A DNA stretch of 20,790 bases, taken from the IMG/VR virus record IMGVR_UViG_2695420685_000016, positions 1 to 20,790 of that record; one strand, 5' to 3'. The notes under the pieces are model-generated. The model had not been told where the DNA came from and ran no database searches. It worked only from the letters and a program-made list of their open reading frames with translations. The position numbers and the translations under genes are program-made. This DNA comes from a virus (lineage: Duplodnaviria; Heunggongvirae; Uroviricota; Caudoviricetes). Positions 14,857 through 15,618 of the stretch are shown here, piece by piece (the first letter of the stretch is position 1; each line of letters begins with the position of its first letter).

Positions 14857-14926
14857 CTGTTTTCTCTGCTGGCGCAGCAGGTGTCAGGTGTTCAGGCTGA
14901 CGTGCGAATTGTAAACCAGAATGCCA

Positions 14927-14955
14927 GGAAAAAACAAAACCCGCCGAAGCGGGTT
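14927..14955 (-). terminator. Intrinsic terminator at the 3' end of the hok mRNA
   Basis: Minus strand AACCCGC-TTCG-GCGGGTT (7-bp stem) followed by TTGTTTTTT. Confidence 0.55.
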
Positions 14956-15023
14956 AAGTGCGGGTGCGTTGAGGATGCCTGACACATCAGAGGTGGCGAG
15001 GGATTTCTCCCCCGCCAGGTCTC

Positions 15024-15179
15024 TTACTCCTCAGGTTCGTAAGCTGTGAAGACAGCGACCTCCGTCTGGCCGGTTCGGATTCGTACCTCGCAGAGGTCTT
15101 TCCTCGTTACCAGTGCCGTCACTATGACGGTTAAACAGATGACGATCAGGGCGATTAACATCGCCTTTTGCTGCTTCAT
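15024..15179 (-). CDS. hok: Hok-family type I toxin (HokD/RelF-like membrane peptide)
   Basis: Product MKQQKAMLIALIVICLTVIVTALVTRKDLCEVRIRTGQTEVAVFTAYEPEE matches Hok/Gef-family toxins from memory; the listed ORF extends in-frame upstream to 15236 but the Hok start is the internal Met. Confidence 0.85.
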   Translation of the reverse strand: MKQQKAMLIALIVICLTVIVTALVTRKDLCEVRIRTGQTEVAVFTAYEPEE

Positions 15180-15438
15180 AGCCTGCTTCTCCTTGCCTTT
15201 CGGCACGTAAGAGGCTAACCTAGATTTGCCGTTCATAGATTGAGCCTCAGATTAATGTTAAGCGTCTTGCAGGACGCGTAATGTTAACTGGGGCTTTTCT
15301 CTATCTGCCTTTTGGTGTTCATGCCTGAGACAGATAGCCTCAAGCACCCGCAGTCATTCTACTTAACTAAGATTTCCCCGCAAACCGTTTTTGTCCGGCA
15401 CAGTAAATATCCAACTAAACCAATGGCGTTCGCTGTAT

Positions 15439-15618
15439 TTACCGCCAGTATTCAATGCACATGACCGCCATGAACACCCCTAAAAAAAGGGCATTTATAT
15501 ATCCAAATATTAATATCAAAACATCAACTTTTTCCATATACCTTGCTGTGAAGATGATGGGCATACATGATACGAACAACCAGAACGCAACAAACAAAAA
15601 CTGCAATGCGTTTTTCAT
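15439..15618 (-). CDS. Small two-TM membrane protein (59 aa) adjacent to hok
   Basis: ATG at 15618 preceded by GTAGGAGGAATA; product MKNALQFLFVAFWLFVSCMPIIFTARYMEKVDVLILIFGYINALFLGVFMAVMCIEYWR has two hydrophobic helices. Confidence 0.45.
   Translation of the reverse strand: MKNALQFLFVAFWLFVSCMPIIFTARYMEKVDVLILIFGYINALFLGVFMAVMCIEYWR

Follow-up and report, generated by a model that had tools for sequence, protein, structure and literature searches.

Does a hok toxin gene that lies within a prophage still have the elements of a complete type I toxin-antitoxin cassette, and does the small membrane protein encoded next to it belong to the same system? These questions are raised by a 20,790-nt stretch of DNA from a virus of the Caudoviricetes (IMG/VR record IMGVR_UViG_2695420685_000016, positions 1 to 20,790), which is referred to here as the window and was analyzed at its full length. 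An earlier note on this DNA had proposed a hok-family locus beside a second small membrane protein that could be another toxin or an exclusion factor. We consider it likely, on the basis of sequence, that positions 14928-15383 constitute an intact hok/mok/sok cassette in the uninterrupted, ancestral form of hokD (relF). Its 59-aa neighbor appears to be separate from the cassette and is probably a genuine gene.

The hok gene and its mRNA

The hok coding sequence was located at 15024-15179 on the minus strand as an open reading frame (ORF), by a Pfam match, and by alignment to Escherichia coli K-12. It follows an AAGGAG Shine-Dalgarno sequence (15189-15194) and encodes the 51-aa protein HokD, MKQQKAMLIALIVICLTVIVTALVTRKDLCEVRIRTGQTEVAVFTAYEPEE, in which residues 1-30 form a hydrophobic stretch. 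The match to the Pfam family HOK_GEF (PF01848) had an E-value of 3e-23 and a score of 81.6 bits, with a cutoff of 22. The protein is the same as HokD/RelF of E. coli K-12, and both the coding sequence and the 3' untranslated region (UTR) have the same sequence as K-12 hokD. An intrinsic terminator lies at 14928-14955 on the minus strand, with a stem at 14955-14938 of 7 bp (5 of them G-C pairs) and a loop of 4, followed by TTGTTTTTTC. This was the sole terminator-like site in 14850-15900. The Hok/Gef toxin gene with its own terminator that the earlier note had described at 15024-15179 is, therefore, present.

The Tyr47 codon of HokD is TAC (15039-15041) and is followed by G, which places it in a UACG context. 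In the hokC, hokD, and hokE mRNAs, A-to-I editing by TadA recodes Tyr to Cys at this position, and this recoding has been linked to toxicity (bioRxiv 10.1101/2025.08.07.668861). Because of the context at Tyr47, full toxicity of HokD may depend on RNA editing.

A candidate hok promoter can be read on the minus strand upstream of the gene. Its -10 hexamer, TAGAAT (15356-15361; TATAAT in K-12 hokC), lies 6 nt upstream of the predicted mRNA 5' end at 15349. The -35-like hexamer, TTGCGG (15378-15383), lies 16 nt upstream of the -10, at a position that agrees with the hokC promoter in the alignment. The promoter scored 7.5-8.0 in a relaxed scan and was under the threshold of a stricter sigma-70 consensus scan. 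The full-length hok mRNA would span 15349-14928, about 420 nt, with its 5' end placed by the start of the Rfam model described below and its 3' end by the terminator. The minimum-energy fold of this RNA has a free energy of -173 kcal/mol (z = -7.3), and its 5' and 3' ends are paired. Specifically, the 5' element tac, GGGUGCUUGAGGC (15337-15349, minus strand; same sequence in K-12 hokC), pairs with the 3' fold-back element fbi, CCUCAACGCACCC (14962-14974, minus strand), in both the minimum-energy and the centroid folds. Such long-range pairing between the two ends characterizes hok mRNA in its inert, full-length form.

The same 3' region is overlapped on the plus strand by a 59-aa "hypothetical protein" (WP_001112736.1, 14803-14982) that the Prokaryotic Genome Annotation Pipeline (PGAP) calls across the hok 3' UTR, fbi, and the terminator. 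The pipeline has probably called a spurious gene here, over a stretch of structured RNA.

The leader, mok, and Sok

The region upstream of hok contains the regulatory elements expected of the family. A match to the Rfam family RF01794 ("sok"), covering the full model (1-157), was found at 15174-15349 on the minus strand with 112.4 bits and an E-value of 3e-25 (gathering score 59). Because this match lies on the same strand as hok and runs up to the hok AUG, it marks the mRNA leader that carries the Sok target and not the Sok gene itself. Within the leader, a mok frame of 70 aa (15024-15236, minus strand) extends hok in frame by 19 codons and has a common stop with it. The mok ATG, at 15236, is preceded at a distance of 8 nt by a GAGG Shine-Dalgarno sequence (15245-15248). 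The product of mok matched phrog_251, "MokW-like host killing," with an E-value of 7.7e-33, and mokC of K-12 is arranged in the same way, as a 19-codon in-frame extension.

Alignment to the annotated SokC of K-12 (16952-17010) places a putative Sok antisense RNA of about 77 nt at 15228-15304 on the plus strand. It would start 9 nt inside mok and span the mok start and Shine-Dalgarno sequence, to which it is complementary. The fold predicted for this RNA (-31.2 kcal/mol, z = -4.5) consists of a long hairpin and, after it, CUUUUCU. A promoter-like site, TTGCCT-17-TAACCT (15193-15221, plus strand), was read from the sequence and the hokC alignment and stops 6 nt short of the Sok 5' end given by the SokC alignment; its hexamers are in the right place but weak. 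Thus, the mok and sok elements that the earlier note expected in the roughly 260 bp upstream of the toxin gene appear to be found at 15180-15383. That note had named the absence of a mok frame or of any sok-like antisense promoter as the sign of a decayed locus; a mok frame and a Sok-like antisense unit with a promoter-like site can be read in the sequence.

In 60 of 76 related loci whose cassette is contiguous, the Hok protein is unchanged; the segment around the mok start and Sok 5' end (15222-15243), by contrast, is hypervariable. The in-frame Mok-Hok fusion is seen in the window and 35 other loci. In the remaining 41 of the 76, a 2-nt difference puts mok out of frame, leaving a 19-codon ORF whose final ATGA overlaps the start of hok, which by its sequence is a termination-reinitiation layout.

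Relationship to other hok loci

The closest comparison is hokD of K-12, which lies in the Qin prophage. The two loci are near-identical in the Shine-Dalgarno sequence, coding sequence, 3' UTR, fbi, and terminator, and the prophage neighborhood (ydfU/DUF968, Q, and a dicB-type immunity region) is common to both. The difference is upstream. K-12 hokD has relBE directly upstream and is without a promoter, tac, mok, and sok, all of which are recognizable in the window. The K-12 sequence diverges fully upstream of the Shine-Dalgarno sequence because relE and relB stand there, and the corresponding region of the window aligns instead with the K-12 hokC/mokC/sokC leader.

A possible origin of the K-12 arrangement was seen in about 20 of the related loci that were fetched (L016 and L070-L096; for example, L072, positions 4440-7714). 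In these loci, the leader stops at the equivalent of 15178, and after a gap of 3.3 kb the hokD coding sequence is taken up again. The 16 bases corresponding to 15178-15193, which form the Shine-Dalgarno/ATG segment, are duplicated around the insert, and the insert itself contains a 437-aa insertion sequence (IS) transposase, flxA, ydfV, relB, and relE. From its sequence, this insert looks like the origin of the relB-relE-hokD order in K-12 and of the missing mok and sok. Since the related loci are split between leader and coding sequence, the window would represent the uninterrupted state.

The cassette also resembles hokC/mokC/sokC (gef) of K-12 in its promoter, tac, 19-codon in-frame mok, Sok across the mok start, fbi, and terminator, although the Sok hairpin of the window is 18 nt longer than that of SokC. 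Plasmid R1 hok/sok, as described in the literature, has an architecture like that of the window cassette. The setting is different, since the window cassette is in the nin region of a prophage, whereas hokC is in a chromosomal islet and hok/sok of R1 is on a plasmid. The hokW/mokW-type loci of Shiga toxin (Stx) phages and other lambdoid phages (PHROG 251) have the same nin-region position and orientation, and their hok module is 92-97% identical in nucleotides. Their similarity to the window ends at about 15369-15396, so they are without the 59-aa ORF module. The locus is already known, and the allele is widely annotated as hokD/MokW.

The 59-aa ORF upstream of hok

The neighboring ORF lies at 15439-15618 on the minus strand and encodes MKNALQFLFVAFWLFVSCMPIIFTARYMEKVDVLILIFGYINALFLGVFMAVMCIEYWR. 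It belongs to no described family and is unannotated in the RefSeq records inspected. An AGGAGG ribosome-binding site is found at 15623-15628 (minus strand), 4 nt before the ATG. The protein is strongly hydrophobic (grand average of hydropathy 1.31), with hydrophobic segments at about residues 4-25 and 31-55, and the AlphaFold2 model contains helices at residues 2-26 and 28-58 with a mean predicted local distance difference test (pLDDT) score of 76. These data agree with the earlier description of a separate 59-aa protein with two transmembrane segments and a strong ribosome-binding site. A hairpin topology with both termini inside is suggested by the basic character of the N-terminus and by an acidic loop in the paralog described below.

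Over 15400-15800, where the ORF lies, the GC content drops to 33-37%, compared to about 50-55% in the flanks. Most hok-bearing phages lose similarity to the window at about 15369-15396, a short distance upstream of the hok promoter, with a boundary near 15393, which indicates that the ORF is a separate mosaic module. Two other frames were considered and rejected. A plus-strand ORF of 85 aa (15455-15712, "hornerin" in one phage record) had no family match and contains two stops in the paralog, and a 72-aa version of the 59-aa ORF with a GTG start has an extension that swallows the AGGAGG and is absent from the paralog.

Searches for relatives of known function were negative. The protein had no match in Pfam, PHROGs, NCBIfam, or PADLOC, and its profile had none in the PDB sequences. 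When the AlphaFold2 model was compared with viral structures by Foldseek, only generic helical hairpins were returned, all with E > 1. A permissive Rfam search of 15350-15860 (E up to 1) gave one chance match only and none within 15439-15760, and no terminator-like site or convincing promoter, and so no recognizable antisense unit over the ORF, was seen on the plus strand over 15439-15760. The terminator scan of 14850-15900 found no terminator belonging to the ORF. Since neither a promoter nor a terminator of its own is recognizable, the ORF is most likely transcribed with the early-right (delayed-early) operon, which would read into hok. A full-text literature search found no paper with either 59-aa peptide sequence (that of the window or of the paralog), and the term "sokD" gave irrelevant results only.

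In general terms only, the protein resembles small membrane toxins with two transmembrane helices and phage membrane "morons," for example GhoT or superinfection-exclusion peptides: it has 59 aa and two predicted transmembrane helices, and it is encoded in a prophage within a low-GC island. It differs from them in that its sequence and fold matched no described family, and searches revealed neither an antitoxin partner nor a dedicated promoter or terminator.

Distribution and evolution of the 59-aa protein

Of 5426 complete E. coli genomes, 1568 (~29%) carry the ORF segment, with an identity that is never below 95%. Each of four intact alleles is found on at least 1000 contigs, and frameshift alleles are found on tens. 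The natural frameshifts occur mostly at a T7 homopolymer (15482-15488, minus strand) and yield products of 55 and 45 aa that are without the end of the second helix. Segregating sites number 10 in 177 nt of the ORF and 18 in 188 nt of the flanks.

A phmmer search of 1.84 billion representative sequences identified one paralog, P0133, which also has 59 aa and is 41% identical end to end without gaps (E 3.7e-9). Beyond these two subtypes, both in Escherichia and Shigella, neither this search nor scans of contigs from genomes, viruses, and metagenomes revealed any intermediate or more distant member. The two proteins have in common the motifs SCxPII, FGxxNAL, and IExWR, and both carry two hydrophobic segments. 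At the nucleotide level, the subtypes are 59% identical, with the same 59 codons, start, and stop, while their flanks are no longer alignable. The proportions of nonsynonymous and synonymous differences between them (pN 0.34 and pS 0.70) give a dN/dS of ~0.23, with dS near saturation, and only 0.6% of composition-matched shuffles kept the frame open.

P0133 is carried, without annotation, by about 1040-1210 of the 5426 complete E. coli genomes (about another 20%). It sits in a decayed prophage remnant between ttcA and uspF-ompN, in the Rac attachment region; examples are locus L014 (829-1008, with a hok fragment at 1063-1124) and locus L099 (~5130-5427; E. coli PSUO2, between ttcA and uspF). 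A DUF977 fragment precedes it, and 55 nt after it there is a 62-nt fragment of the hok coding sequence, which shows 81% identity to 15111-15050 and is interrupted by an in-frame stop. P0133 was intact in 21 of 21 loci, though the adjacent hok, DUF977, and integrase genes are fragments. Because both subtypes keep the order DUF977, small ORF, and hok, this gene order is old. According to database records, ATCC 25922 carries the main type and strain 83972 carries the paralog.

Small transmembrane ORFs upstream of hok were also sought in other phages (Stx2 phage I, Tritos, and mEp460), and no consistent pattern of recurrence emerged. Phage Tritos (locus L150, 1956-2048) has a 30-aa hydrophobic ORF, MVLVLKCALAIAAVMAIYCLAVVLMDRLSD, directly upstream of its hokD locus. 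Its sequence has no relation to that of the 59-aa ORF, and its presence there may be a matter of chance.

Proposed mechanism of the hok/sok cassette

The following mechanism is drawn from knowledge of the hok family (bioRxiv 10.1101/2025.08.07.668861) and is proposed by extension for the window. Transcription from its own promoter would give a stable hok mRNA of about 420 nt, in which the pairing of tac with fbi would keep the message translationally closed. Slow trimming of the 3' end would then open the mRNA. As long as the short-lived Sok RNA (~77 nt, plus strand) is made, it would pair across the mok ribosome-binding site, block translation of mok and hence of hok, and mark the duplex for cleavage. 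If synthesis of Sok stopped, because the element was lost or transcription was shut off, the processed stable mRNA would give Mok and Hok. The 51-aa Hok protein would enter the inner membrane and damage it, so that the cell would be killed or arrested.

Alternative explanations

Several observations weigh against the reading of an intact cassette beside a genuine gene. For the cassette, the RF01794 match, being on the hok-sense strand, does not alone demonstrate an antisense gene. The hok and Sok promoters are both under the threshold of the standard sigma-70 consensus scan, and since both are weak and absent from the strict scan, expression of Sok is a prediction. The cassette, including its transcripts and proteins, is known here as DNA sequence. 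In addition, native chromosomal hokA, hokB, and hokC gave no post-segregational killing and no response to rifampicin, according to Pedersen and Gerdes (1999) as cited by bioRxiv 10.1101/2025.08.07.668861. By that account, an intact architecture is no guarantee of activity. The cassette could, therefore, be structurally intact yet silent as a killer, like these other chromosomal loci, and persist as selfish or neutral prophage cargo. The defects of the prophage, namely a frameshifted cro-like gene and a pseudogene at 15789-16105, would fit with this, as would the TACG context of the Tyr47 codon, given that recoding to Cys is linked to the toxicity of hokC, hokD, and hokE. However, the regulatory elements are all kept, and so is the Hok protein in most of the related loci (60 of 76). 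The IS/relBE insertion inactivates the locus in other lineages, as expected if the intact form is costly or active, and the HokD coding sequence is toxic when overexpressed (bioRxiv 10.1101/2025.08.07.668861). We regard a silent cassette as possible but doubtful.

For the 59-aa ORF, PGAP left it uncalled in all five carrier genomes inspected, strict and relaxed scans gave no convincing promoter, and alleles that are frameshifted at the T7 run or truncated by an IS exist. Recent polymorphism is 9 nonsynonymous to 1 synonymous in 90 loci, and that of P0133 is 4 to 0 in 21 loci, for a total of 13 to 1 within the two subtypes; this pattern cannot be told apart from neutral drift, and diversifying selection would fit it as well. 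Differences between the paralogs fall 25/17/31 on the three codon positions, and the excess at the third position is not significant (chi-square p ~0.13). Together with the lack of matches in Pfam, PHROGs, NCBIfam, and PADLOC and the restriction of the family to Escherichia and Shigella, these data could suggest that the ORF is a chance frame in the AT-rich spacer of a decaying prophage, in which only hok/sok is functional. We think that this is unlikely. A chance frame would not explain why the paralog, at only 59% nucleotide identity and between flanks that cannot be aligned, is free of indels and still runs for exactly 59 codons from the same start to the same stop. Nor would it account for the low probability that the frame stays open by chance, a pN well under pS, or the clustering of the conserved residues in the three motifs. 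The strong AGGAGG is at a workable spacing, and broken alleles are far fewer than intact ones. Therefore, the ORF is, in our judgment, probably a genuine gene for an uncharacterized small membrane protein, a view that rests on these sequence comparisons.

If so, the protein might be functionally coupled to Hok, as a second membrane toxin, a modulator or immunity factor of Hok, or a partner in exclusion or abortive infection. Each subtype directly precedes hok on the same strand, all recovered loci with the ORF have at least the hok leader adjoining, and there is no terminator between the ORF and hok. Like Hok, the product is predicted to be a small hydrophobic inner-membrane protein. The adjacency can, however, be explained by a gene order inherited from one ancestral prophage. 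Since the DUF977 fragment upstream is syntenic as well, the proximity of both subtypes to hok counts as one observation and not as two independent ones. Most hok loci are without the ORF, as 4957 genomes match the hok-containing query compared to 1568 with the ORF segment, and Stx-type and other phages carry unrelated sequence upstream of hok. Moreover, the paralog is intact where hok is destroyed, one locus (L011) keeps the ORF while an IS element replaces hok, and scans around the ORF revealed neither an antisense RNA nor a partner that resembles an antitoxin. Because most hok loci lack the ORF, the ORF survives the loss of hok, and the two subtypes have a single shared ancestry, we find a functional link to Hok very improbable. 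Our best guess is that the 59-aa protein is a fast-evolving accessory membrane protein of the phage, acting, for example, in exclusion or another conflict at the membrane, and not a part of the hok system. A broader proposal is that the ORF founds an undescribed family of small, fast-evolving proteins of the inner membrane, which would be limited to Escherichia and Shigella, comprise the two subtypes (41% identical), and have stayed open even in a remnant where hok and all other neighbors have decayed. The family would then have its own function in the host or phage, such as superinfection exclusion or modulation of membrane toxins such as Hok. We hold this to be distinctly unlikely.

Significance

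The presence of a hok/sok cassette adds little in itself, as hok loci have been catalogued in thousands of genomes, phages, and prophages, and prophages are about four-fold enriched for hok (bioRxiv 10.1101/2025.08.07.668861). The window would show hokD as it was before the relBE/flxA/IS block split the leader off, and this would explain why K-12 hokD, as has long been noted, is without mok and sok. It thereby offers a natural, apparently intact hokD/sok allele that can be used to ask whether prophage hok loci are active. The 59-aa ORF, if it is expressed, would be one more overlooked small membrane protein in a very well-studied species. Overall, the locus is ordinary for hok and mildly interesting for the overlooked small protein.

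Prophage setting

The chromosome of E. coli JNEC-KY173 is 100% identical to window positions 14850-15750, and PGAP calls hokD (WP_000813254.1) there. The genes around the hok region are all on the minus strand and form the early-right arm of a Qin-like lambdoid prophage. Their order is a YdaT-family gene, a replication-protein homolog, DUF977 and several small genes, the hok/59-aa region, and then genes for a 90-aa protein, DUF968/YdfU, RusA, and the Q antiterminator, followed by two tRNAs. The immunity region, which is of the DicB type, lies further on and contains a LexA-like repressor, ydfB, ydfC, and dicB. The prophage setting that the earlier note had assumed is supported by the DUF968/YdfU, RusA, and Q genes and by this immunity region. 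The hok cassette occupies the nin region, with the replication genes on one side and Q on the other.

The cro-like gene of the prophage is frameshifted, and the gene upstream of the 59-aa ORF (15789-16105, minus strand) is a pseudogene with a frameshift and an internal stop according to PGAP; from these two lesions, the prophage is defective. In strain AR_0372 (locus L007, 1820-2434), the coding sequence matching 15789-16105 is intact. It encodes 204 aa of unknown family and ends ~120 nt before the 59-aa ORF.

The two tRNA genes are at 11931-12007 and 12109-12184 on the minus strand, just downstream of the Q antiterminator, which is their typical placement in Stx-like and lambdoid prophages. 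One is a tRNA-Arg(UCU), and the other has a CAU anticodon and is called Met by ARAGORN and Ile by PGAP. Finally, a full-length match to the STnc100 small RNA family (RF02076, 132 bits) was found at 11045-11234 on the minus strand, between an IraM-like gene and the tRNAs, at the start of the late region.

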